Shown in pieces: positions 7,821-62,660 of a stretch of 64,000 bases of DNA (position 1 is its first letter; each line of letters starts with the position of its first letter). Origin of the DNA: Candidatus Desantisbacteria bacterium CG1_02_49_89 (GTDB lineage Bacteria > Desantisbacteria > UBA1551). The DNA is taken from contig MNUP01000033.1 of the NCBI GenBank assembly GCA_001871075.1, positions 437 through 64,436 of the forward strand, in the 5' to 3' direction. The position numbers were made by a program, and so were the translations under genes. A model generated the notes under the pieces. The model was not told where the DNA came from, ran no database searches, and saw nothing but the letters and a program-made list of their open reading frames with translations.

Positions 7821-8041
7821 ATGGCCTCTTTAATAAATAGATTAAATATATAATATAAAACCTGAAAATAGAGAATTGAAAATTGACCACAATCTCGCAA
7901 TCTCCTTTATCTATTGCTCTATTTTCTATTGCTCCAGTTTTCCGCAGTGCATATCAAAAAGACAGAAAATAGAAAATTGAGCAATAGACCGTCCGCCAAT
8001 CATGCTGGGCGGACTCTGATTTTTCGCAGAGCGAAAAATCT

Positions 8042-8115
8042 GGGCGGTACCCGGCTCGAACGGGTGACCTCCACGATGTCAACGTGGCACTCTAACCAAC
8101 TGAGCTAACCGCCCG
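8042..8115 (-). tRNA. tRNA-Val(GAC)
   Basis: Minus-strand sequence GGGCGGTTAGCTCAGTTGGTTAGAGTGCCACGTTGACATCGTGGAGGTCACCCGTTCGAGCCGGGTACCGCCCA folds as a cloverleaf with anticodon GAC. Confidence 0.85.
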
Positions 8116-8210
8116 CACATTCAAACACTCTTAGCGAAGTTGAAAACTGCGACCACAGGGAGTCCCGCATCTCCGATGGTACATCGGAGCATCGGGGAGC
8201 TAACCGCCCG

Positions 8211-8289
8211 TTTTAATACAGTTAAAAGTTGCCCGCCCCGACAACCATCGGGGCGAGGTCTCGCCCTGATTGAAATCAGGGCGGAAAAG
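8211..8289. repeat. Twin-hairpin element, copy A (CCCCGACAACCATCGGGG + CGCCCTGATTGAAATCAGGGCG)
   Basis: About 95% identical to 58728-58805. A diverged relative lies at 8623-8690. Confidence 0.5.
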
Positions 8290-8395
8290 CTGAAAGTTAA
8301 AAACTAAAATAGCCTGATAGAAAATAGAAAATTGAGAATAGACCGTCCCGATGTAACATCGGGACTCCACCACTTTTCCCTTGTTGGGAAAAGTG

Positions 8396-8470
8396 GTGCC
8401 AAGGGGCGGAATTGAACCGCCGACGCACGGATTTTCAGTCCGTCGCTCTACCAGACTGAGCTACCTTGGC
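8396..8470 (-). tRNA. tRNA-Phe(GAA), with CCA encoded
   Basis: GCCAAGGTAGCTCAGTCTGGTAGAGCGACGGACTGAAAATCCGTGCGTCGGCGGTTCAATTCCGCCCCTTGGCACCA. Confidence 0.85.
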
Positions 8471-8756
8471 ACATCCTGGTTAATGATAAAGAAAAGATTG
8501 ATGAACCTTTCAGTCCGTCGCTCTTCCTGGGTGATCTGCATAAAAGAATGCGCGTCGCTTTGCTCTTCCACCCGTCGAAGACATAAGTGATGTCTTCGAC
8601 CCAGACTGAGCTACCTTGGCACGTTAAATACAGTGATGAGTGAAAAGTGTCGCCCCTTCGGCGACCCGCCGTTGAGGCGGGAAAAGTCAAAAGATCATAC
8701 AACAGACTGCCTGTCCGTAATTACTGATATTCGCTTAATTGATTGACGCTTTTTAT

Positions 8757-8831: not shown

Positions 8832-9063
8832 GTTGTCAAGGTATTATACGATTCTCAGTAGATAACTGGATAACTTGACGATTGGATAACTGGTTACTGC
8901 TAATCGTCCGATAATCTAATAGTCTAATTGACTAAAATATTATACCATATATTTAATCTATGTCAAGTTTTTAGATAATTTTAACAGGTTCAAAATAAAA
9001 TAGGCAGACTTTTTAAGGTCTGCCTATTTCTTTTGCCCTTTTATTCTTTTTCCCGGCCCGGTC

Positions 9064-11939: not shown

Positions 11940-12992
11940 CTATTTTCCGTGCAGCATGTTCTTCAAAAGGCCGGGATTGCTTGACCTGGAGATCGCCTCT
12001 TCATAATCGATCAGCCCCTTTTCATGCAGTTCCTTCAAAGACTGCTCCATGGTCGTCATCCCCTGTTCCCTTCCCAGCTGGATAGCGCTGGGTATCTGGT
12101 GGGTCTTGCCCTCGCGTATCAGGTTCGCTATGGCAGCCGTAAAAAGCATTATCTCCCTTGCCGCGACCCTGCCCCCGCCTATACGGCTGAGCAGCTGCTG
12201 GGAAATGATCCCCTTAAGGGCCATTGAAAGCTGCGCCCTTATCTGCTGCTGCTGGCCGACGGGAAAAACGTCTATGATGCGGTCCACGGTCTGGGCCGCG
12301 TCGATTGTATGGAGCGTGGAAAACACAAGATGCCCTGTCTCCGCGAGAGTTATCGCGGCAACAATGGTCTCCAGATCCCTCATCTCGCCCACCAGGAGCA
12401 CGTCCGGGTCCTCGCGCAGGGCGTCCTTCATGGCGCCCGCGAAGGAACCCATGTGGACGCTGAGCCCCCGTTGATGCACTACTGCTTTTTTCTTCGGGTA
12501 TATGAACTCGATGGGGTCTTCGACCGTGATAATGTGGCATTTCTTCTCGCTGTTTATCAGGTCTATCATGGCTGCAAGGGTCGTGGATTTCCCGCTGCCC
12601 GTAGGGCCGGTCACAAGCACCAGGCCCCTGGGAAGCCTTGCAAGGTCATAAGCGATCTTCGGCATATCAAGGCTTTCCATTGACGGAATCTTCGTGGGTA
12701 TCGGCCTGAGCGCTACCGCTATGCCGCCCAGTTCCTGGAATACGTTAACACGGAACCTGCCTTCAGTGATCCCGTATGAAAAATCCAGAGAGTAGTTCTC
12801 CTCGAACATTTTTGCCTGGTTTGTGCTCATCATGCTGTAAGCCAGGTTTTTTGCGTCAGCTGTGGTGAGATCCGTTTCGTTCATGGGGATAAGCTCACCT
12901 GCCAAACGGACCATCGCGGGCATGCCCGCGCTCAAATGGATGTCTGAAACTCCCTTTCTAACGCTCTCCTTCAGAATATCGTTGATGTCCAT
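11940..12992 (-). CDS. pilT: Type IV pilus retraction ATPase PilT
   Basis: Walker A GPTGSGKSTTLAAMID. PilT family architecture. 350 aa. Confidence 0.85.
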   Translation of the reverse strand: MDINDILKESVRKGVSDIHLSAGMPAMVRLAGELIPMNETDLTTADAKNLAYSMMSTNQAKMFEENYSLDFSYGITEGRFRVNVFQELGGIAVALRPIPTKIPSMESLDMPKIAYDLARLPRGLVLVTGPTGSGKSTTLAAMIDLINSEKKCHIITVEDPIEFIYPKKKAVVHQRGLSVHMGSFAGAMKDALREDPDVLLVGEMRDLETIVAAITLAETGHLVFSTLHTIDAAQTVDRIIDVFPVGQQQQIRAQLSMALKGIISQQLLSRIGGGRVAAREIMLFTAAIANLIREGKTHQIPSAIQLGREQGMTTMEQSLKELHEKGLIDYEEAISRSSNPGLLKNMLHGK

Positions 12993-17776: not shown

Positions 17777-17840
17777 TAGTTCCTATGTTCCCATGGTTCA
17801 CGTTTAACAATTTACATTTTGAATTTTGCATTTTGCATTT

Positions 17841-19241
17841 TTAATTATATTCCTCCCTCCTCCTTATCCCGTGTTTCCTCATAAGCGAATGGAAATTCTG
17901 CCTTTTCATTTTCACTTCCAACGCGGTCCTGCTGACGTTCCCGTTGTTCCTCTCCAGGGCGCTGGAAACAAACAGCTTTTCCAGTTCTTCAACAGCCTTT
18001 GCCCTCAGGTCTCTTTTTGCCTCTTTCAGCTTGTCGCTGCTCCTGGGGACCTCAGCCGATAACCGGACTTCATCTTTCCGGAATTCATTGGGAAGGTGGT
18101 TAGGCAGCACGGATTCATCCGCGACTGTAACTGCAAGCCTCTCAACAAGATTCTCAAGCTCGCGCACGTTGCCCGGCCAGTTATATTCCATCATCAGGTT
18201 CATTGCCTCAGGGGAAAATGACCTGACTTTTGAGCCTTTCCCGCGTATCGAAAGGAAATTCTCTATGAAGAGCGGTATGTCCTCTTTCCTTTCTCTAAGG
18301 GGAGGGATGTGCACCGGCACCACGTTCAAGCGGTAGAAAAGGTCTTCCCTGAAACTGCTGTCCTTCACCATTTTTTTAAGGTTTTTATTCGTCGCGGCGA
18401 TGATACGCACGTCCGCCTTCTTATTTACCACGTCCCCGACCCTCTTGAACTCCTTTTCCTGGAGCACCCTCAGCAGCTTTGCCTGGACACCGAGTGTGAT
18501 GTTGCCTATCTCATCCATGAAAAGAGTGCCGCCTTCGGCTGTTTCAAAAAGGCCTGGTTTATCCGCAGCTGCCCCGGTAAAAGAACCCTTCATATGGCCG
18601 AACAGCTCGCTTTCCATCAGGTTCTCGGAAAGGCTGCTGCAGTCAACGGATACGAAAGGCCTGCCTTTCCTTGGGCTGTTATGGTGTATGGCGTGCGCCA
18701 CAAGCTCCTTTCCTGTCCCGCTTTCTCCGGTTATCAGTATGGTGCTGTCAGTGCAGGACACCTTTTCAAGCAGGTCGTATATTTTTTGCATGGCCTGGCA
18801 TTTTCCCATTGCTTTTCCGAACGCGTATCTGTCTCCCAGTTCTTTTTTAAGCCTCTTGTTCTCTTTGATCATACCTTTGGATTCCAGCATCTTGGATACC
18901 TTTACGCGCAATTCCTCAGGCATGAACGGCTTGGGTATGTAGTCTGAAGCCCCAAGTTTCATTGCCTCCACCGCGTCGCCTACAGTGGAATAGCCTGTGA
19001 TCAGCAGTATGCTTATTTCCGGATACGCCTTCTTCGTCCGCCTGAGCAGTTCCATGCCGTTCATTCCCGGCATATTCACGTCCGCGATCACGATATCCGG
19101 GACTTTTTCGCCTATTTTCCTGAATGCTTCCGCCCCGTTCAGAGCTGTCTCGATAATGTAATCGCAGCTCTTCAGGATCGAAGCGCAGGCATCGCATATT
19201 TCCTTCTCATCATCCACGATCAGGATCCTGTATTTCTCCAT
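17841..19241 (-). CDS. NtrC-family sigma-54-dependent response regulator
   Basis: REC. AAA+ sigma-54 activator core (GESGTGKE, GAFTGA-like GSFTGA, ESELFGH). C-terminal Fis-type HTH. Confidence 0.85.
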   Translation of the reverse strand: MEKYRILIVDDEKEICDACASILKSCDYIIETALNGAEAFRKIGEKVPDIVIADVNMPGMNGMELLRRTKKAYPEISILLITGYSTVGDAVEAMKLGASDYIPKPFMPEELRVKVSKMLESKGMIKENKRLKKELGDRYAFGKAMGKCQAMQKIYDLLEKVSCTDSTILITGESGTGKELVAHAIHHNSPRKGRPFVSVDCSSLSENLMESELFGHMKGSFTGAAADKPGLFETAEGGTLFMDEIGNITLGVQAKLLRVLQEKEFKRVGDVVNKKADVRIIAATNKNLKKMVKDSSFREDLFYRLNVVPVHIPPLRERKEDIPLFIENFLSIRGKGSKVRSFSPEAMNLMMEYNWPGNVRELENLVERLAVTVADESVLPNHLPNEFRKDEVRLSAEVPRSSDKLKEAKRDLRAKAVEELEKLFVSSALERNNGNVSRTALEVKMKRQNFHSLMRKHGIRRREEYN

Positions 19242-27929: not shown

Positions 27930-28160
27930 TTGTCTCTCCGAAAGTTTGCCCTACTTTCAAGCGCGATGAATCGCGCCGCTACATAAACATAGCAGTAACT
28001 TGACACTTGATACTTGACTCTTGATACTAATTTAACCACGGATTCTCACGAATTTCCACGGATTTTCAAATTGAATTAACTTGTAAACTACACTTAAACC
28101 TTAGGTTAACACTGTTTTAGATAAAATCTTTGTCGTTGATTCATAACTCATAATTCATAA

Positions 28161-29000: not shown

Positions 29001-29048
29001 AACCCACGCTTTAAAACGTGTCAGCGTGTCAACGTATCAACGGGTCAG

Positions 29049-29118
29049 AGCCCCGCCAGCTCCTAAGGAGCTTAACGGCGGGACCTGCGCCCGCCAATAA
29101 TCGTGGCGGGCTACGGAC
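29049..29118. repeat. Structured ~70-90-nt element, copy 3 (opposite orientation, compensatory variant)
   Basis: It shares CGGGACCTGCGCCCGCCAATAAYCGTGGCGGGCTACGG with 38353-38439 and 54175-54260. The second stem-loop differs in sequence but keeps the same stem/bulge(TAAC)/stem geometry. Confidence 0.45.
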
Positions 29119-38253: not shown

Positions 38254-38352
38254 AACTTCAGATCCTGGATACTGGATGCAAGATGCTGGATAAAATCAAT
38301 TTGAAGGTTGTGTGGGAATAAAAACCGAAAATAGAACAATGGAAAATAGACC

Positions 38353-38439
38353 GTCCCGACCGTAGCCCGCCACGGTTATTGGCGGGCGCAGGTCCCTGTG
38401 TTAAGTTCCGGATTTATAGGAACTACAGGGATCGGGACT
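38353..38439. repeat. Structured element, copy 1
   Basis: GTCCCGACCGTAGCCCGCCACGGTTATTGGCGGGCGCAGGTCCCTGTGTTAAGTTCCGGATTTATAGGAACTACAGGGATCGGGAC. It is 95% identical to 54175-54260. Confidence 0.45.
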
Positions 38440-38568
38440 CCAGATTCTTCGCGGAGCGAATGCAAGTAAGCAAACACTGAGAATAGAGAATTGAAAATAG
38501 ACCGCAATGTCGCTTTGTCTTTTCTATTCTCGATTTTCTATTGCTCCATTGCTCTAGTCCCGATCTTA

Positions 38569-38650
38569 TATCGGGACTGCCGAGGGCGGGATTTGAACCC
38601 GCAAGGGTTACCCCATACGCCCCTTAAACGTACGTGTCTGCCAGTTCCAC
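38569..38650 (-). tRNA. tRNA-Leu (type II, long variable arm). The anticodon loop is unusual; best parses are AAG or TAA.
   Basis: GCCGAGGTGGTGGAACTGGCAGACACGTACGTTTAAGGGGCGTATGGGGTAACCCTTGCGGGTTCAAATCCCGCCCTCGGCA. D-arm, T-arm and acceptor are canonical Leu-like. The anticodon stem-loop folds as either a 7-nt loop TTAAGGG or a 9-nt loop. Confidence 0.7.
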
Positions 38651-38707
38651 CACCTCGGCTAATAATCTATTGCTCTATTTTCTATTGCTCTGCTTGAAGG
38701 GGTTTAT

Positions 38708-43801: not shown

Positions 43802-45035
43802 CTTCGGCTGTTTTTAATATTATCCCGGCCAGCCTTGCGGCTGCACCGCCCTCTCCCATTACTTCCTTTAACCTGGCAGACATACCGGCCCTGAGCTCAC
43901 TGTTCCTGATCAATTCCGATGCCTTCTCCAGCACCATACCAGGATCTACAAAATCCTTTATTTCGGGCACGACTTCCTGTCCGGCTTTCTGATTTGGTAT
44001 GGCGGTATATTTCAGCCGCATGCCGAAATCCAGCACGAGTTTTTTCTTAAGGATCCTGCCTATCAGGGGTATATACTGGACGTATCCTGCGATCCCATCA
44101 AGCGGTATTTCTTCGGGTTTGTTTAAAGGCACCACTACGATCATGGGGCAGCCTGCTGCCGCGATCTGCGCCGTATTTGTGCCCGGTATGGTCAATATAA
44201 GGTCGCAGGCGTTCATTACGTCATACGGCATTTCCTGGGCCCGGATGACCCTTGTTCCGTCTTCCGTTGTTATCAGGCCGTCCGCGAATTCCGCTTTTAT
44301 CCCTTCAAGCGCGCCGTTCTGTCCCCCGGCCTTAACGGCTTCTGACAGCTGGCTGTCAGTTACAAAGGAAGCGCGGCTCAGGACAAACCTGCTTTCCGGG
44401 AATTTTCCGCGGATCAGGCTGCAGCATTTAAGAAAAAAAGATGTCATGTGTTTTATCTGGTAAGGCCTGCTTCCCGGAAATATCCCTACCAGGATCTCGT
44501 TTTTTGCAGCACCGCACCTGCTTCTTGATTCTTCTCTGGAAAGACCGGGTTTCACGGCTTCAACGAAAAGATCTCCCGCAATTTCTATCTTTCCCGCATC
44601 AATACCCTTTTCAGAAAGCCTCTTTTTGCTGTTTTCGTCAGTGACAATGAATTTTCTAAAAAACGCGTTATAGAACCTGCCGGCGTCATGGGTGTATGCC
44701 ACGGCCGGGTAACCGAGGCGCCCGGAGATCAGGACCGAGTGCATGTAATCGCTTCCGAGGTGGACAAGAACGCCCTTCTTTGCGAACCCGCCCTTTACCC
44801 CTTTGTTAAGGAAAAGGAATTTTAGGTATTCACCCGGGCTGAAGACATGATCGACCCCGGGAATATTTTTCGCTATCTCTGTTTCTGTCCCGCTCGCATA
44901 CTGGCAATACGGTATAAATATAATTATCCTGTCACGTTCGACGTCCGACGTTCGACGTTCGACGATTTCTTTAACAACAGGCGTCACCCACCCTTTGATC
45001 TCGCCGGGGCTGTTCGTCACGATCACTATATCCAT
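43794..45035 (-). CDS. Lipid-A-disaccharide synthase (LpxB)-like glycosyltransferase (GT19-like)
   Basis: N-terminal IVTNSPGEIKGW resembles the LpxB GE.SGD motif. 413 aa. It contains the in-frame heptamer array (CGTTCGA)x4. The family call is uncertain. Confidence 0.45.
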   Translation of the reverse strand: MDIVIVTNSPGEIKGWVTPVVKEIVERRTSDVERDRIIIFIPYCQYASGTETEIAKNIPGVDHVFSPGEYLKFLFLNKGVKGGFAKKGVLVHLGSDYMHSVLISGRLGYPAVAYTHDAGRFYNAFFRKFIVTDENSKKRLSEKGIDAGKIEIAGDLFVEAVKPGLSREESRSRCGAAKNEILVGIFPGSRPYQIKHMTSFFLKCCSLIRGKFPESRFVLSRASFVTDSQLSEAVKAGGQNGALEGIKAEFADGLITTEDGTRVIRAQEMPYDVMNACDLILTIPGTNTAQIAAAGCPMIVVVPLNKPEEIPLDGIAGYVQYIPLIGRILKKKLVLDFGMRLKYTAIPNQKAGQEVVPEIKDFVDPGMVLEKASELIRNSELRAGMSARLKEVMGEGGAAARLAGIILKTAEGV

Positions 45036-45040
45036 TTTAG

Positions 45041-45071
<31 letters not shown>

Positions 45072-45140
45072 GTTAGATTATAATTATTTCATAATTTCTA
45101 TTTCTAACAAACTATAAAACGAACCAACTAACAAACTCTA

Positions 45141-53332: not shown

Positions 53333-53587
53333 TTAATATAGTCAGATATATAAATAGAATTGAGAATTTAAAAACGGGTCGGCTTCGAACCATATTTAAA
53401 AGCTGAAAATGGATAATAGAGCAATAGACCATCCCGATGTAACATCGGGACTCTATTTTTTCGCTCTGCGAATGCTCAATACTGAGAATGGAAAATAGAG
53501 CAATAGACCGCAATTTCGCAATTCCTTTCTCTATTTTCTATTGTTCTATTGCTCCATTGCTCTATTTTTTCGCTCTGCGAAAAAATG

Positions 53588-53659
53588 AGCGGGAGACGGG
53601 ATTCGAACCCGCGACATCTACCTTGGCAAGGTAGCACTCTACCACTGAGCTACTCCCGC
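53588..53659 (-). tRNA. tRNA-Gly(GCC)
   Basis: GCGGGAGTAGCTCAGTGGTAGAGTGCTACCTTGCCAAGGTAGATGTCGCGGGTTCGAATCCCGTCTCCCGCT. Confidence 0.85.
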
Positions 53660-53770
53660 TTAAAATACAGTTGTCAGTTGTCGGTTCTCAGTTGTCAACT
53701 AAAAATCAAACTCTTTGATCTATTTTCAATTTTCCTTTGCTCGATTGCTCTGATCCCGATTTTATCGGGA

Positions 53771-53800
53771 TTTGCGAGGGAGAGGACTTGGTCCTTTGTG
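53771..53800 (-). pseudogene. tRNA-Leu 3'-end remnant followed by the family post-tRNA hairpin
   Basis: TTTGCGAGGGAGAGGACTTGGTCC mimics the tRNA-Leu(TAG) 3' end TCTGCGAGGGAAGGGACTTGAACCC. No complete cloverleaf. Confidence 0.3.
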
Positions 53801-54029
53801 AATCTTCGCCAGAACCGGGTGAAGTCTCAGATTCACCCGGAGCCGGGGAATTTTGCTGACGCCCCGATGGTAGTCATCGGGGCTTTACCAGTGGCGCAAA
53901 ATTCCTTTCAAGTCTTTGTCAAAACTTGAAAATGGAAAATTGAACAATAGACCGCAATCTCCTTAAGTATTTATCTATTGCTCTATTCTCTATTTTCGAT
54001 TGCTCCGATTTTTCGCCTCGCGAAAAATC

Positions 54030-54111
54030 TGCGAGGGAAGGGACTTGAACCCCTAAGCCTTTCGGCATACGGTCCTAAGCCGTACGCGTATACCAGTTCC
54101 GCCACCCTCGC
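54030..54111 (-). tRNA. tRNA-Leu(TAG)
   Basis: GCGAGGGTGGCGGAACTGGTATACGCGTACGGCTTAGGACCGTATGCCGAAAGGCTTAGGGGTTCAAGTCCCTTCCCTCGCA. Confidence 0.85.
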
Positions 54112-54174
54112 TTACAATCTATTCTCCATTTTCTATTTTCGGACTCTGAAAATAGAACAATAGAGCAATTGACC

Positions 54175-54260
54175 GTCCCGACCGTAGCCCGCCACGGTTA
54201 TTGGCGGGCGCAGGTCCCTGTGTTAAGTTCCGGTTTTATCGGAACTACAGGGATCGGGAC
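54175..54260. repeat. Structured element, copy 2 (spacer between tRNA-Lys and tRNA-Leu)
   Basis: Near-identical to 38353-38439. Confidence 0.45.
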
Positions 54261-54286
54261 TCTGATCTTTCACCTCGTGAAAGATC

Positions 54287-54358
54287 TGCGCTGCGCCGGA
54301 TTTGAACCAGCAACCTTGTCCTTAAGAGGGACCTGCTCAACCGTTGAGCTAGCAGCGC
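54287..54358 (-). tRNA. tRNA-Lys(CTT)
   Basis: GCGCTGCTAGCTCAACGGTTGAGCAGGTCCCTCTTAAGGACAAGGTTGCTGGTTCAAATCCGGCGCAGCGCA. Anticodon loop CTCTTAA. Confidence 0.75.
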
Positions 54359-54475
54359 ATATTACTACGATGAAAGAAAATAGAAAATGGAAAATAGACC
54401 ACAATCTCGCTATTCCTTAATCCATTGCTCTATTCTCTATTGCTCGATTGTTCTGTTTTTCCCGAAGGGAAAAAC

Positions 54476-54664: not shown

Positions 54665-55111
54665 CTATTTATTTTTATAAAATAATGATGTAAGTGTTTT
54701 TTTCAGCGCCGCAACGCCCTTTTCGTCATCGATCTTGTAGCTGTTTATAAGGAATTCCGCTATGGATTGCGCCATTGCGCTCGCCTGGTTATTCTCAATA
54801 GACAGATAGTCAACCCCGGTCTGCATTTTACCGGGCTCTGTCTCTTCGGACCACACTACCCTTCCGATCGCCTTTATTTTGTGCTCGGGAAACGCCAGAA
54901 TAATTTCCAGTATCGTATTGGGAGGTATTATCTCATTTGTAACTATGCACAGCCCGCTCGTGCTGAAATTCTTTGTGGAAGTATTATAAATTTTTTGCCC
55001 AAGGTTCTCAAAATCTTCTTTTGATATGTTAGAGAGCGCGCGGTATTTCACCGGGATTTTGCCGCTTATGCGGGGGAATGTTCTCCTTTCTTCGCCCTTC
55101 CAGTCTCCCAT
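54665..55111 (-). CDS. PilZ-domain (c-di-GMP-binding) protein
   Basis: RR..R motif (EERRTFPRI). D.S.GG-like (STSGLCIV). Confidence 0.7.
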   Translation of the reverse strand: MGDWKGEERRTFPRISGKIPVKYRALSNISKEDFENLGQKIYNTSTKNFSTSGLCIVTNEIIPPNTILEIILAFPEHKIKAIGRVVWSEETEPGKMQTGVDYLSIENNQASAMAQSIAEFLINSYKIDDEKGVAALKKTLTSLFYKNK

Positions 55112-55236
55112 TTCGCCTCCAGCTTTCTAATACAGTAACAAGTAACAAGTGACAAGTAACAAGTTTACAGCTTTTAACTGGATACTGGTCGCCACTACGG
55201 TCACCACTTCGGCGACCTGCCGACGCGGCATGGCGA

Positions 55237-55307
55237 CCCGCCGTAGTGTCAGCAAACTCTTTGCGAATAGCAAAGTTTTGAGTTTGCTGAGCATTCACGC
55301 AGGCGGG
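55237..55307. repeat. GAATA-loop covarying hairpin element, copy 1
   Basis: CCCGCCGTAG + stem CAGCAAACTC / GAGTTTGCTG + inner stem CTTTGC-GAATA-GCAAAG + ...GCAGGCGGG. It is homologous to 58224-58293 with compensatory stem changes. Confidence 0.4.
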
Positions 55308-55332
55308 ACACTGGCTACTGGTCACTGATTTG

Positions 55333-56982
55333 TTATTCGTAGGGCACGACTGCGGGTTCGCCGGTTTTTGAGGACTTTTCCGCGGCTTCTATCACCCCTA
55401 TGACCCTGCGCGCCTTTTCTGCAGTTATCTCAAGTTTTTCACCGAGCATCAAATGATCGGCAACGTTAACATAATACTCGTTCCAGAAAGAAGGTTTGTA
55501 CTTAATATCGGATTCAGAGCGAACTCCCTGGATCAACGAGCTCATATGGAAGGAACCCTTGCCCCATTCATCTGTTATTCCGCCTGTTTCTCCCAGTATC
55601 CTCCATCTTGGCTTGCCTATCGCGGCAATACTTGAAACCTGGATATCGGCATACGCGCCGTTCTCAAACCTGATAATGGCCTGCGTCTGGTCCTCGACGG
55701 TAACCGAGTGCCATACCCTCTTATGGAAAAATCCGGTTACGTTTTTTATCCCGGATGGTATCAAACCAAGGGTCCAAAATATAAGGTGGGCCCCCCAGTC
55801 ATAAAGAGCGCCTCCCGAGATCTTCTTGTCGGACCTCCACCAGTATCCCGGATGCCCGTAGCCGCCTATGAATATTTCCGTGTGGAAAATATTTCCGATC
55901 ATGCCTTTTTTCACCACTTCTTCTATTGCGAGGAAATCCCCGTCCCATCTCCTGTTGTGGAAAACTGACAGCATAACTCCGTTCTTTTTTGCCGCCCTTA
56001 TCATTTCCGTTGCTTCTTTTGTCGTCAGGCACATTGGTTTTTCAAGAACAACGCTCTTACCCGCGGCCAGGCAGTCCATTGCTATCGGGGCATGAGTATT
56101 ATGGGGCGTAATCACGCTGACCAGCCCTATTTCCTTATTCTTAAGCATTTTTTTGTAATCGGTATACGTGGTTATTGCGGGGAAATCTTTCTTTACCGCC
56201 TCCATTCTTCTGGCATTCAAATCGCACGCGCCAATGCCTTTTATCCCGGCTGCGTTCATCATATCAAGATGCGCCTTGCCCATATTGAATGCCCCGCCGT
56301 ATCCTATAACCGCCCCGCTGACCGTTTTATCCTCCCTGAAACCGGTTACAAAACGCGCGGCCCTTCCGACTATTTTCCGGAACGACGGATGCAGAAGCGC
56401 TGCGCCATCGTGGCCCAGGGCAACATAACAAACCTTCCCCTTTCCGCATTCTTTTATATAAACCATTGGCTGGGATTTCCCCTGCCAGAACGCAGTTGCC
56501 AGGATATGGACCGCCGGGTCATGATCAACAAAATACAACTCGTCTGAAACGCTGAAATCCTGGAGCCTTTTTGTCACAAGGCTGTCTCGGTCTGCGATAT
56601 TTACCTGAAACTCCTGGTAAGGCGCGTGGCCTTTGAATTCGCATCCGAGCATAGCCAGGTAATTCTTATTGCCTTTAAAGATTGAAGCGCAGTGGATTCC
56701 TACAAACCCGCCGCCCTTTTTAACGAAAGACATTAATAAGGATTCCTGCTCCGCTGTTAATTTACCCCGGCTGTATCCTTCCACCGGACCGTGCGCGTAG
56801 AAAATACACGCTTTAAAGGATCCCAGTTTTTCCGGAGTAATCGCGTCCATCCGCTCAACCAGCTCTGCGTCAAATCCCTCATCCTCTTTCAGGATATCCC
56901 TCAGGATAACTCCGGTTTTATGAAAATCGTGGCTCCTGGCATCCCCTTCAGCCACGATCAATATCCTTCCCCCTTCTGTCAT
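55333..56982 (-). CDS. ThuA-like (class-I glutamine-amidotransferase-like) domain fused to a Gfo/Idh/MocA oxidoreductase
   Basis: N-terminal ThuA pattern (ILIVAEGDARSHDF...). C-terminal GYGGAFNMGKAH Rossmann region + EKP. Confidence 0.75.
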   Translation of the reverse strand: MTEGGRILIVAEGDARSHDFHKTGVILRDILKEDEGFDAELVERMDAITPEKLGSFKACIFYAHGPVEGYSRGKLTAEQESLLMSFVKKGGGFVGIHCASIFKGNKNYLAMLGCEFKGHAPYQEFQVNIADRDSLVTKRLQDFSVSDELYFVDHDPAVHILATAFWQGKSQPMVYIKECGKGKVCYVALGHDGAALLHPSFRKIVGRAARFVTGFREDKTVSGAVIGYGGAFNMGKAHLDMMNAAGIKGIGACDLNARRMEAVKKDFPAITTYTDYKKMLKNKEIGLVSVITPHNTHAPIAMDCLAAGKSVVLEKPMCLTTKEATEMIRAAKKNGVMLSVFHNRRWDGDFLAIEEVVKKGMIGNIFHTEIFIGGYGHPGYWWRSDKKISGGALYDWGAHLIFWTLGLIPSGIKNVTGFFHKRVWHSVTVEDQTQAIIRFENGAYADIQVSSIAAIGKPRWRILGETGGITDEWGKGSFHMSSLIQGVRSESDIKYKPSFWNEYYVNVADHLMLGEKLEITAEKARRVIGVIEAAEKSSKTGEPAVVPYE

Positions 56983-57596: not shown

Positions 57597-57820
57597 GTGT
57601 CAGAATGTCAGAGCAGAATTATGGCTCTTTGACTTATATCTTCAATACTTTTTAATCAAGCCGCGTTTTCCTTTCTATATTTTCAATTGCTCTGTTTTCA
57701 GCTCTGCGAAATAAAATCTGAAAATGGAAAATAGAGCAATAGACCGAAATGTCGCTTCTTTTTTCTCTATTTTCTATTGTTCTATTGCTCCATTGCTCTG
57801 ATTTTCCCTGCGGGAAAATC

Positions 57821-57899
57821 TGGGGTGAGCGAGGGGATTTGAACCCCCGGCCACTTGGGCCACAGCCAAGTGCTCTAACCGGACTGAGCTACGCCCACC
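57821..57899 (-). tRNA. tRNA-His(GTG), with G-1 and 3' CCA encoded
   Basis: G-GTGGGCGTAGCTCAGTCCGGTTAGAGCACTTGGCTGTGGCCCAAGTGGCCGGGGGTTCAAATCCCCTCGCTCACCCCA. Confidence 0.85.
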
Positions 57900-58042
57900 A
57901 CCTAATAATCCATTTTCTATTTTCTATTATCGATTACTCGATTGCTCTGTTTTTCCCGCTGGTACTGCCTGAGAATAGAGAATGGAACATAAACCGTCCC
58001 GATGTTACATCGGGACTCTGATTTTTCGCTTCGCGAAAAATC

Positions 58043-58116
58043 TGCGCCTGGCCCGATTCGAACGGGCGGCCACCTACTTAGAAGGCAGGTGCTCTATCCA
58101 ACTGAGCTACAGGCGC
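58043..58116 (-). tRNA. tRNA-Arg(TCT)
   Basis: GCGCCTGTAGCTCAGTTGGATAGAGCACCTGCCTTCTAAGTAGGTGGCCGCCCGTTCGAATCGGGCCAGGCGCA. Confidence 0.85.
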
Positions 58117-58223
58117 ACACCCATAAAAACAGTGTCAAAGAGTCAGAGTGTCAGAGTGTCAAAGTAAAAGATAAGAATCCTTAGATATTTGGAGCGAAGG
58201 GAAACTGCCTGTCCGCCGACTTG

Positions 58224-58293
58224 CCCGCCGTAGCACCAACAAACCTTTTTCGAATAGAAAAATATTAGGTTTGTTGGGTATCTGCGCAGGCGG
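58224..58293. repeat. GAATA-loop covarying hairpin element, copy 2
   Basis: CCCGCCGTAG + CCAACAAACC / GGTTTGTTGG + TTTTTC-GAATA-GAAAAA + GCAGGCGG. Confidence 0.4.
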
Positions 58294-58432
58294 AAGCATA
58301 TTGCGGCAAACCCACGACGTTTAGTTAATACACAAATACCCTTAAACAAAAAGAACTAGAGAATAGAAAATTGAGCAATAGACCGTCCCGATGTCACATC
58401 GGGGCTCCAAATTTTCGCGTTGCGAAATTTTA

Positions 58433-58507
58433 TCGGGAAGGTGGGATTTGAACCCACGGCCTCCTGCTCCCAAAGCAGGCGCGCTAGCCAGGCTGCGCTA
58501 CTCCCCG
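58433..58507 (-). tRNA. tRNA-Pro(TGG)
   Basis: CGGGGAGTAGCGCAGCCTGGCTAGCGCGCCTGCTTTGGGAGCAGGAGGCCGTGGGTTCAAATCCCACCTTCCCGA. Confidence 0.85.
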
Positions 58508-58727
58508 TCGCCTGCTTTGCTCGCCCAGGGCATTCTGCAGGCGAACAAAGCGTTTGTTCGTTCCACTCACTCCATGCCCGTGAACGACATAAGTGATGTC
58601 GTTCACCCCAAAGCAGGCGCGCTAATCCTGTGTGCTATGCAATAACGGAAGTGTGGCTCGTTCCACTCGCATCGCACCCGTAAACGACATAAGTGATGTC
58701 GTTTACCCAGGCTGCGCTACTCCCCGC

Positions 58728-59408: not shown

Positions 59409-59515
59409 ATTTAATTATGAATTATGAATGCTGAGTTATGAATCAACGGCAAGGATTTCAATTTAAATTAAATTCCTTGACTCATAATTCATAACTCATA
59501 ACTCATAATTTACTG

Positions 59516-60244: not shown

Positions 60245-60422
60245 TAAACCTCCGTTTGATTTAATTATGAATTATGAATTATGAGTTATAAGTTATGAAT
60301 CAACTGCAAGGAATCAAATTGTAACTCAGGGCTTTAGCCCTGATTCATAACTTTGCCCTTCGGGCAACATTCTCGTGTGGTTTTGCAGAATGTTTTCGAA
60401 TTCCATAACTCATAATTCATAA

Positions 60423-60947
60423 TTATTTGTAGATACTTTTACCGTATGAATTAATCCCGACCAAAACAGGGAAATCTTTCAGTTCAAGCTCATATATCGC
60501 TTCCGGACCCAGATCCCTGAAAGCGATCACTTTCGCTTTTGTTATTCTGCGGGAAAGCAGTGCCCCTGTTCCGCCAACAGCCACAAAATAAACCGCGCCG
60601 GATCTTATTATGGCCTTTTTTACGTCTTCTGAACGGTTACCCTTGCCTATCATTCCTTTAATACCGAGTTTAAGCAATAGCGGAGTGTAACGGTCCATCC
60701 TGGAGCTTGTTGTCGGGCCGCACGAGCCGATCGGCATGCCTTTCGGAGCCGGTGCCGGTCCCGCGTAATATATCGTCTGTCCCTTCCAATCTATCGGCAG
60801 TTTCCAAGCTTTGAGCTTTGAGCTTTGAGCTATTCTTTTATGCGCAGCGTCCCTTGCTGTGTATACTGGTCCCGTCAGCAGAACCTTTTCGCCTGCCCTT
60901 AATTTCTTTATGTCAATATTATTTAATGGAAGTATTATTTTTTTCAT
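60423..60947 (-). CDS. Class I fumarate hydratase / tartrate dehydratase beta-type subunit (Fe-S hydro-lyase C-terminal domain)
   Basis: LTGPVYTARDAAHKRI signature. 174 aa. It contains the in-frame (AGCTTTG)x3 heptamer array. Confidence 0.8.
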   Translation of the reverse strand: MKKIILPLNNIDIKKLRAGEKVLLTGPVYTARDAAHKRIAQSSKLKAWKLPIDWKGQTIYYAGPAPAPKGMPIGSCGPTTSSRMDRYTPLLLKLGIKGMIGKGNRSEDVKKAIIRSGAVYFVAVGGTGALLSRRITKAKVIAFRDLGPEAIYELELKDFPVLVGINSYGKSIYK

Positions 60948-60982
60948 CTTTTAACTTGTTACTTGTTACTTGTTACTGGATA

Positions 60983-62527: not shown

Positions 62528-62660
62528 CTGTTCTCCTTTATATGATTACACCGATTACAAAACCGATTACACCGATTTAAAAATGATTACTGTGATTTCA
62601 AAAGAGATTACGGTGTTACTGCATTCAACTTTTAACGTTTAACTTTTAACGTTTAACTGG

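Follow-up and report, generated by a model that had tools for sequence, protein, structure and literature searches.

Among dispersed bacterial repeats, the repetitive extragenic palindromic (REP) sequences offer the nearest comparison for the element described here. In the GTAG-tagged REPs, a GTAG tag stands beside a stem-loop, sub-families differ by complementary stem changes, and GC-clamped complex loops can hold further palindromes of up to 27 bp; the repeats lie near the 3' end of the upstream open reading frame (ORF), between unidirectional genes, and are likely transcribed as hairpins (Di Nocera et al. 2013, PMC3733652). Our comparison set consisted of the E. coli REPs with their bacterial interspersed mosaic elements (BIME), Stenotrophomonas SMAG and Pseudomonas REP/REPIN, and the criteria used were a length of 20-40 bp with stems of 6-13 bp, tens to hundreds of copies per genome, and an associated RAYT (a Y1 HUH transposase). 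The analysis concerns two hairpins, copy 1 (55237-55307) and copy 2 (58224-58293), in a stretch of 64,000 nucleotides (the window) from contig MNUP01000033.1 of Candidatus Desantisbacteria bacterium CG1_02_49_89. With modest confidence, we regard them as copies of a dispersed, modular intergenic palindromic repeat of the Candidatus Desantisbacteria lineage, a large relative of the GTAG-tagged REP/BIME elements. This palindromic repeat of about 70 bases has not been described so far; in its architecture, a CCCGCC/GGCGGG stem serves as a clamp around a GTA-G[19 bp of bulged stem]C-GCA palindrome.

Copy 1 reads CCCGCC GTA GTG TCAGCAAACTC TTTGC GAATA GCAAA GTTTT GAGTTTGCTGA GCATT CAC GCA GGCGGG, and copy 2 reads CCCGCC GTA GCA CCAACAAACCT TTTTC GAATA GAAAA ATATT AGGTTTGTTGG GTATC TGC GCA GGCGG; common to both is CCCGCC-GTA-G…GAATA…C-GCA-GGCGG(G). 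The shared ends and the identical GAATA loop, on which an earlier note on this DNA had based its claim of two related copies, are thus confirmed from both sequence and fold. The fold is the same for both copies, on either strand, as RNA or as DNA. From the outside, a stem of 5-6 bp (CCCGCC/GGCGGG; in plus-strand coordinates of copy 1, 55237-55242/55302-55307) leads to a symmetric 3x3 internal loop (GUA/GCA; GTA 55243-55245 and GCA 55299-55301) and a 3-bp stem (55246-55248/55296-55298). Further inward follow a 5-nt bulge on the 3' arm (GCAUU in copy 1 and GUAUC in copy 2; GCATT 55291-55295, GTATC 58278-58282), an 11-bp stem (55249-55259/55280-55290), a second 5-nt 3' bulge (GUUUU or AUAUU; GTTTT 55275-55279, ATATT 58262-58266), a 5-bp stem (55260-55264/55270-55274) and finally the GAAUA loop (GAATA 55265-55269 in copy 1, 58252-58256 in copy 2). 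RNA folding energies are -35.5 kcal/mol for copy 1 and -30.4 kcal/mol for copy 2 (z = -6.5 and -5.8), a stability that no shuffle out of 200 attains; folded as DNA, both strands of the copies are equally stable, with z about -6. The composite hairpin pattern has two matches in the window versus none in 100 shuffles.

Between copies 1 and 2, seven of the 19 inner pairs have changed, and all seven changes are compensated by Watson-Crick pairs. Two compensated stems had been noticed earlier, and both hold, but that count is one short, because the 3-bp stem is compensated as well. The 23 bases of the outer stem, the 3x3 loop and the pentaloop, on the other hand, show no change at all between the window copies, for which our arithmetic gives a chance of about 2e-5 at the inner-pair rate of change (37%). 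Pairing is therefore all that is required of the stems, but the clamp and the unpaired parts are under sequence constraint.

Further members were sought by scanning a genome collection and metagenomes for the pattern CCGCCGTAG..GAATA..GCAGGCGG. The genome-collection scan, whose output does not contain the source species itself, yielded 61 matches, about the chance expectation, nearly all of them single matches in unrelated taxa; only two possess a GAATA-capped long hairpin, namely L016, from a metagenome-assembled genome (MAG) of Saccharibacteria, and L020, from a groundwater Elusimicrobia MAG. Out of 40 matches in the metagenome scan, six (L076, L084, L095, L098, L102 and L106, all groundwater metagenome contigs) have the exact geometry of the window hairpins and a length of 69-70 nt. 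A covariance model was built from these eight sequences, i.e. the two window copies and the six metagenome members. Copy 1 and copy 2 score 92.0 and 92.9 bits, and the six added members 87-96 bits; no chance match to the pattern exceeds 35 bits, and the values for L020 and L016 are 39 and 24 bits. In the structural alignment of the eight members, 13 of the 19 inner pairs show at least two Watson-Crick types and both-sided changes occur at 11 pairs; paired cells amount to 96.7%, as against 86% in shuffles and 36-50% with slid partners, and in 500 shuffles neither the pairing nor the covariation score of the alignment was attained. Length and bulge positions are constant in all eight members, with the 3x3 mismatch loop and both one-sided bulges kept, and the 3' bulge (G-Y-W-U-Y) is conserved though it lies outside the search pattern. 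The invariance of GAATA, GTAG, the clamp and CGCAGGCGG in the six added members is imposed by that pattern, so that the unbiased test of these bases is the comparison of the two window copies. The two hairpins are members of a real covarying family and not chance palindromes. The covariation statistics (13 of 19 pairs; 0 of 500 shuffles) thus support what the earlier note had read from two copies, and the six further members tell against the possibility, also raised there, that only two copies exist and derive from one palindrome mutated symmetrically. Four sub-types can be distinguished: copy 1 with L076, copy 2 with L106, L095 with L098 and L102, and L084 by itself.

The window proteins are identical to those of Candidatus Desantisbacteria MAGs from Crystal Geyser-type groundwater. 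In all ten strain variants of the window locus (L001-L010), the pattern recurs at the positions known from the window; for three of them (L001, L006 and L009), scoring gave both copies bit scores equal to those of the window, and the copies there are presumably unchanged. The density of copies is low: about 84 kb of this genome contain two, separated by 3 kb, and the 13-kb contigs L084 and L095 contain one apiece. Model searches of the window (filters off), of its 20 kb of flanking sequence and of fetched loci totalling about 750 kb revealed no additional or divergent copies. In a search of the window with Rfam 15 at the gathering threshold, only tRNAs pass, and at E values up to 10 the best hit in 55180-55360 attains 17 bits against a threshold of 80. 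A scan of viral contigs gave two chance matches only, both within GC-rich coding-like sequence, blastn against plasmids and phages gave no meaningful match, and a histidine-kinase homologue search for further Desantisbacteria DNA returned other phyla only.

The family occupies at least nine unrelated loci with different flanking genes: ThuA-GFO/PilZ; tRNA-Pro/tRNA-Arg; adenylate cyclase/TPR protein; formate-THF ligase (FTHFS)/FTCD_C; URO-D; an SBBP repeat protein; and MscS. Homology between loci stops sharply at the module, and the flanks are unrelated. The copies themselves can be close: L106 and copy 2 are 94% identical over 72 nt, L076 and copy 1 86% over 71 nt, and L095, L098 and L102 are mutually about 92% alike over 121-134 nt, while the member contigs range from 43 to 52% GC. 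At orthologous sites of related species the element is missing. The ThuA-GFO/PilZ spacer measures 8 nt in L117 (65% amino acid identity) versus 221 nt in the window, and the tRNA-Pro/tRNA-Arg spacer 13 nt in L114 (68% amino acid identity) versus 315 nt; neither the L117 nor the L114 locus contains a model match. Other spacers compared between the window species and L114 measure 178 versus 12 nt and 107 versus 31 nt, and the spacers compared are 2 to 15 times longer in the window lineage than in the sister species.

The module is also nested. In L095, L098 and L102, the hairpin sits inside a larger conserved module (TAGGGCAAACC...GGTTTGCG), which folds as an extended hairpin and, in L095 and L102, is possibly flanked by TA at the ends of its 134 nt. 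In L084, the same outer module recurs at about 1126-1200, but there the clamp encloses a 9-nt loop in place of the 59-nt hairpin (CCCGCC-AAACTGACT-GGCGGG, about 1150-1175). The window contains five further CCCGCC..GGCGGG clamps, whose loops measure 5, 9 and 19 nt, as against an expected number of 0.18. There are three units of the form GTAG-CCCGCC-9 nt-GGCGGG-C in the window and two in L084; they carry the C-GUA-G / C-GCA-G loop of the family in permuted order, and two of the three window units are nested in the loop of another hairpin. One of these (GTAG-CCCGCC-ACGGTTATT-GGCGGG-C, 54184-54209, plus strand) lies inside the loop of a GTCCCGA/TCGGGAC hairpin in repeat D19 (54167-54262), and the second (38362-38387, plus strand) in the other copy of D19 (38345-38440), which is 97% identical to the first. 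The third unit (29089-29114) is on the minus strand, in opposite orientation, and adjoins a CCCGCC/GGCGGG stem (29052-29082) whose loop contains a small nested hairpin. A bare CCCGCC-GTTGA-GGCGGG hairpin (8665-8681) represents the minimal form of the family's clamp. Four bases upstream of its member, L076 possesses a mini-hairpin (862-889, CCGCC-GCA-GC-TTTA-GC-GTA-GGCGG) with the clamp and 3x3 loop of the family, but flipped, which produces an inverted pair like a REP dimer. Because of the unrelated neighbours, the absence at orthologous sites, the nesting in short and long forms and the low density, the element looks like a dispersed nested repeat module rather than a dedicated RNA gene or a gene-specific regulator.

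Nearly all genes of the window are on the minus strand, which is the G-rich strand. Copy 1 lies between ThuA-GFO (55333-56982, minus strand) and PilZ (54665-55111, minus strand), 25 nt downstream of the ThuA-GFO stop, and the PilZ start follows 126 nt further on; copy 2 lies in the 315-nt spacer between tRNA-Pro (58433-58507, minus strand) and tRNA-Arg (58042-58117, minus strand). Both contexts had been recognized correctly before. In all eight members, the flanking genes run opposite to the GAATA reading, as judged by Pfam-checked flanking genes for six members, by the tRNAs for copy 2 and by ORFs only for L076; if the members are independent, the probability of this constant polarity is, by our calculation, about 0.008 (two-sided). 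Where measured, the upstream stop precedes the element by 25 nt (copy 1), 17 nt (L106), 30 nt (L102), 87 nt (L095) and 282 nt (L084), all five of these members lie between co-directional genes, and the next start is usually about 100-126 nt beyond the element. Since the flanking genes are opposite to the GAATA strand, a co-transcribed RNA would carry a UAUUC loop and read CCCGCC-UGC-G...RAUAC bulge...UAUUC loop...C-UAC-GGCGGG, so that the transcribed sense of both window copies would be that of the minus strand. Of the interpretation in the earlier note, the covarying family stands, with six members more, but the GAATA pentaloop was probably read from the wrong strand.

Several familiar RNA classes were considered and rejected. 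An intrinsic (Rho-independent) terminator lacks its U-run on either strand; in the sense of the genes, the hairpin is followed by UCGCCAUGCC in copy 1 and by CAAGUCGGCG in copy 2, and a terminator scan lists neither full hairpin. GAAUA as a boxB-like or GNRA-type pentaloop fits only the strand antisense to all neighbouring genes, and a riboswitch or gene-specific leader is at odds with unrelated neighbours and a position 3' of genes. Inspection by eye for a pseudoknot between loop and bulge gave at most 2-4 complementary bases, which are not conserved. Two ORFs traverse the hairpins, 55029-55325 (minus strand, 98 amino acids) and 58143-58349 (minus strand, 68 amino acids); they are likely annotation artefacts, and the blastx match of the former to L106 is spurious and caused by the repeat only.

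How does the element compare with the REPs? It shares with them the GTAG (55243-55246 and 58230-58233) directly 5' of the inner stem, sub-families (here four sub-types) that differ by complementary stem changes, and an intergenic position just 3' of the upstream ORF between co-directional genes. Like REP/BIME, it forms mosaics with other small repeat modules, and the simpler GTAG-CCCGCC-loop-GGCGGG units co-occur in the same genome. It differs in that its GTAG is not a free tail but part of the 3x3 internal loop, opposite CGCA, inside the CCCGCC clamp. With 59-71 nt, it is two to three times longer; its 19 inner pairs are distributed over three helices, one arm bears two conserved 5-nt bulges, and the pentaloop is fixed. 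Moreover, its density is apparently low, an inverted partner is found only at L076, and no RAYT is seen in the sequence searched. As judged from sequence, and given a length beyond the REP range, the element may be called a variant of the REP kind, and we do not assign it as a member.

Other dispersed repeats resemble it in part. Cyanobacteria contain small dispersed repeats (SDRs), STRR heptamer arrays and Nezha-type miniature inverted-repeat transposable elements (MITEs), as reported by Elhai and co-workers (2008) and Mazel and co-workers (1990). The SDRs are likewise very small hairpin-compatible repeats nested in repeats, with 7-nt tandem arrays filling the intergenic DNA, and they are lineage-specific and missing from close relatives; they measure 21-27 nt, however, and they belong to another phylum and show no sequence similarity to the element. 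Correia repeats of Neisseria, pneumococcal BOX and enterobacterial ERIC are also non-coding, hairpin-forming dispersed repeats between genes; they are transcribed, 100-150 nt long and affect mRNA processing or stability, and BOX is modular. In contrast to the element, they have terminal inverted repeats and defined target duplications (TA for Correia) or a boxA-B-C order, and all three are devoid of the clamp, the 3x3 loop and the bulged-stem design. Finally, integron attC sites are imperfect palindromes just past a stop codon, with fixed polarity, a structure kept more than the sequence, an unpaired spacer and one-sided extrahelical bases. The element has neither R''/R' cores nor an integrase or cassette array, and its neighbours are housekeeping genes and tRNAs. 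Because its ends are CCCGCC/GGCGGG, with no RYYYAAC...GTTRRRY cores and no integrase or cassette context, an attC assignment was rejected.

L016 and L020 are possible distant members. Both have the clamp, the 3x3 loop, the second stem and a GAAUA-capped stem of 4-5 bp, with internal loops replacing the bulges of the family; according to a rough estimate, about 0.1 such hairpins would be expected by chance in the whole scan, but the covariance model fails to separate L016 from the background. The L016 hairpin begins 5 nt past the stop of a HepT toxin gene and is oriented like the eight members; the HepT/MntA pair preceding it (2089-2949) consists of a HEPN toxin and a nucleotidyltransferase antitoxin. 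L020 is the exception in polarity: its hairpin is located between divergent genes and precedes, by 116 nt, a gene with a metallo-beta-lactamase fold, with which its GAATA sense agrees. These candidates bear on a tentative proposal to which we give a minor share of our belief, i.e. a novel class of structured modules of about 70 nt, self-nesting in hairpin loops, that would extend across candidate phyla (Desantisbacteria and possibly Elusimicrobia, by L020, and Saccharibacteria, by L016) and share a fixed recognition code composed of the CCGCC clamp, the G.A/U.C/A.G 3x3 loop, the one-sided 5-nt bulges and the G...A pentaloop.

For the REP-related repeat that we favour, the following scheme may be imagined. 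An enzyme, perhaps of the HUH/RAYT-like kind or of another, would recognise the fixed unpaired bases of the folded single strand and copy the element into other loci. Once in place, it would be transcribed together with the upstream gene as a hairpin with a UAUUC loop, and its interrupted 24-bp stem might, like that of REPs, halt 3' exonucleases or shield the next promoter. Several observations weigh against this interpretation. The unit of 70-71 nt, with an inner hairpin of 59 nt and two conserved 5-nt bulges, exceeds the 20-40 bp of REPs, and the copy number seems low (two in about 84 kb; one each in L084 and L095). Neither a transposase nor a RAYT nor an integrase was found in the 84 kb of Pfam-annotated context, and tblastn with an approximate E. 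coli RayT query found no match in 139 kb. Direct repeats flank four of the eight members (L106, with GATACGTTG, L076, L084 and copy 1) at variable offsets, but they belong to 7-nt tandem arrays and so do not by themselves indicate the target-site duplication that, with terminal inverted repeats, characterises a MITE. The wobbles in the GAATA sense (three T.G versus five C.A or A.C) give no strand signal. In structural terms, the G.A-capable 3x3 loop (GUA/GCA) and the G...A pentaloop suit the GAATA strand better, and that strand is antisense to the genes. Lastly, fixed loops and free stems would equally be expected of an RNA signal bound by a host protein.

Such a signal is the main rival, which we consider possible yet unlikely. 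The hairpin would be a cis-acting RNA of the host in mRNA 3' trailers and tRNA-operon spacers, read in the UAUUC sense and recognised by a protein or an RNase through the fixed 3x3 loop, the RAUAC bulge and the apical loop; its several copies would be due to usefulness and not to mobility. The 23 unchanged nucleotides of outer stem, internal loop and apical loop beside 37% changed inner pairs, the fixed length and bulge positions, the constant polarity to genes (8 of 8), the low copy density and canonical terminators that are not enriched in the region (16 versus 15.5 expected) would all suit it. Less easily reconciled with it are the lack of an Rfam match even at E = 10 and of a tie to any gene function, the absence from orthologous spacers of related species with the same genes, the near-identical (94%) copies in unrelated loci of genomes that differ in GC content, and the occurrence of the hairpin within a larger repeat module also found with only a 9-nt loop. 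Another proposal, which we think quite improbable, is a separate small RNA gene that would be transcribed in the GAATA sense, opposite to the neighbouring genes; its GNRA-like G...A pentaloop and tandem G.A/U.C/A.G loop would serve as protein or tertiary contacts. The purine-rich conserved loops would favour the GAATA strand structurally, this strand is marginally more stable at every copy, with a large gap in L020 (-16.0 versus -10.8 kcal/mol), and in L020 its sense agrees with the downstream gene. Yet no conserved promoter-like or terminator-like flank is present, homology ending at the stem ends, the antisense placement at all eight members has no obvious rationale, and T.G wobbles are not more numerous than C.A mismatches.

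A site acting as folded single-stranded DNA, be it an attC-like recombination site, a priming signal or a lagging-strand signal at the replication fork, appears hardly better placed and has, in our opinion, a small chance of being correct. It agrees with the equal foldability of both strands as DNA (z about -6) and the symmetric wobble statistics, and the one-sided bulges resemble the extrahelical bases on which the strand choice of attC sites depends. In addition, the minus strand is G-rich and presumably leading, in which case the lagging-strand template would have the TATTC sense at every window copy; here, though, the orientations of replication and transcription are inseparable. RYYYAAC/GTTRRRY cores, an integrase and a cassette context are all missing, the neighbours are housekeeping genes, and no meaningful plasmid or phage matches were obtained. 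Barely credible, finally, is chance, or a single ancestral palindrome whose symmetry would be due to intrastrand template switching or gene conversion and not to structural selection. Homogenisation would indeed also produce the symmetric stem changes seen throughout the window copies. The pattern, however, occurs in none of 100 shuffles, the eight members show independent compensations, and homogenisation would erase asymmetries, whereas every member retains the 3x3 mismatch loop and the two one-sided bulges in identical positions.

The spacers that hold the two hairpins contain further repeats. A 7-nt tandem array (AGTAACA x4.4, 55134-55164) lies between copy 1 and the PilZ start in the same lineage-specific 221-nt spacer, and the expanded 315-nt spacer of copy 2 has an 8-nt array (AGTGTCAA x4.4, 58131-58165) on the side towards tRNA-Arg. 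Together with these two, arrays of period 7-8 are found at 437-465, 2376-2406, 17816-17846, 27998-28028, 29015-29047, 44934-44964, 45040-45076, 59413-59443, 59480-59508, 60263-60300, 60807-60831, 60954-60977 and 62627-62657. They are intergenic, with a different unit in each spacer, and most consist of 3.4-4.6 copies and span about 24-37 nt. Many precede the start of a minus-strand gene or tRNA by 5-55 nt; some are inverted pairs that fill the whole spacer, as between Ham1 and RNase PH (59413-59510). The array unit ACGTTCG is also present beside the hairpin in L084, and the short spacers of L114 hold no such arrays. The arrays of the window recall the STRR heptamers of cyanobacteria.

A separate family of small hairpins, GTCCCGATGTNACATCGGGAC, is located at 53425-53451, 57996-58016, 58388-58410 and about 8340-8365 of the window. 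It adjoins tRNA genes, stands about 25 nt from the element in L095 and L098, and is presumably the first hairpin family of the earlier note. Repeat D19 (38345-38440, 54167-54262) has the same outer stem as this family, with two further hairpins nested in the loop. Every tRNA gene of the window is part of a repeated cassette (7850-8400, 38300-38700, 53380-54470, 57700-58430), in which an A/U-rich hairpin (TTTTTCGCNNNGCGAAAAA) at the tRNA 3' end is combined with inverted arrays of GAAAATA/CTATTGC-type repeats; the tRNA spacers measure 143-315 nt in the window versus 13-17 nt in L114. In L114, the 5' half of tRNA-Pro is duplicated and followed by a hairpin, GTGAACGACATCACTTATGTCGTTCAC, that occurs twice near tRNA-Pro in the window (58580-58606, 58680-58706). 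L114 also has inserts of 110-165 nt that lie between 38-50 nt duplications of the 3' ends of tRNA-Leu and tRNA-Gly; the tRNA duplication sites there are at 8898-9035, 12070-12230 and 12296-12510, and together they give the impression of small elements that target tRNA genes. A further set of direct repeats in the window (9064-31597), i.e. the 227-nt repeat D1 and repeats D6, D7, D8, D13 and D15, corresponds to conserved parts of paralogous histidine-kinase/response-regulator genes (PAS-HisKA-HATPase) and was rejected as non-coding repeats, since it lies in coding paralogues.

Non-coding architecture is seldom examined in the genomes of candidate phyla that are known from metagenomes only. In this lineage, the enlarged intergenic DNA holds a tool-kit of nested palindromic modules and tandem arrays of about 31 nt. 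For annotators, the repeats entail a warning, because spurious ORFs such as 55029-55325 overlap them; the covariance model, in turn, provides a handle for a genome-wide census. If the novel class across candidate phyla were true, the module would be either a novel type of minimal hairpin-in-hairpin mobile element, handled by some unfamiliar enzyme, or a novel protein-binding RNA motif exchanged among groundwater bacteria. If the hairpins are a host RNA signal, they would represent a new motif of 3'-end formation or processing in a lineage apparently without canonical terminators in this region. If they are mobile, REP-type elements would extend to a new phylum and to a much larger, bulged and clamp-enclosed design, and the fixed unpaired bases would point to a specific recognition protein.

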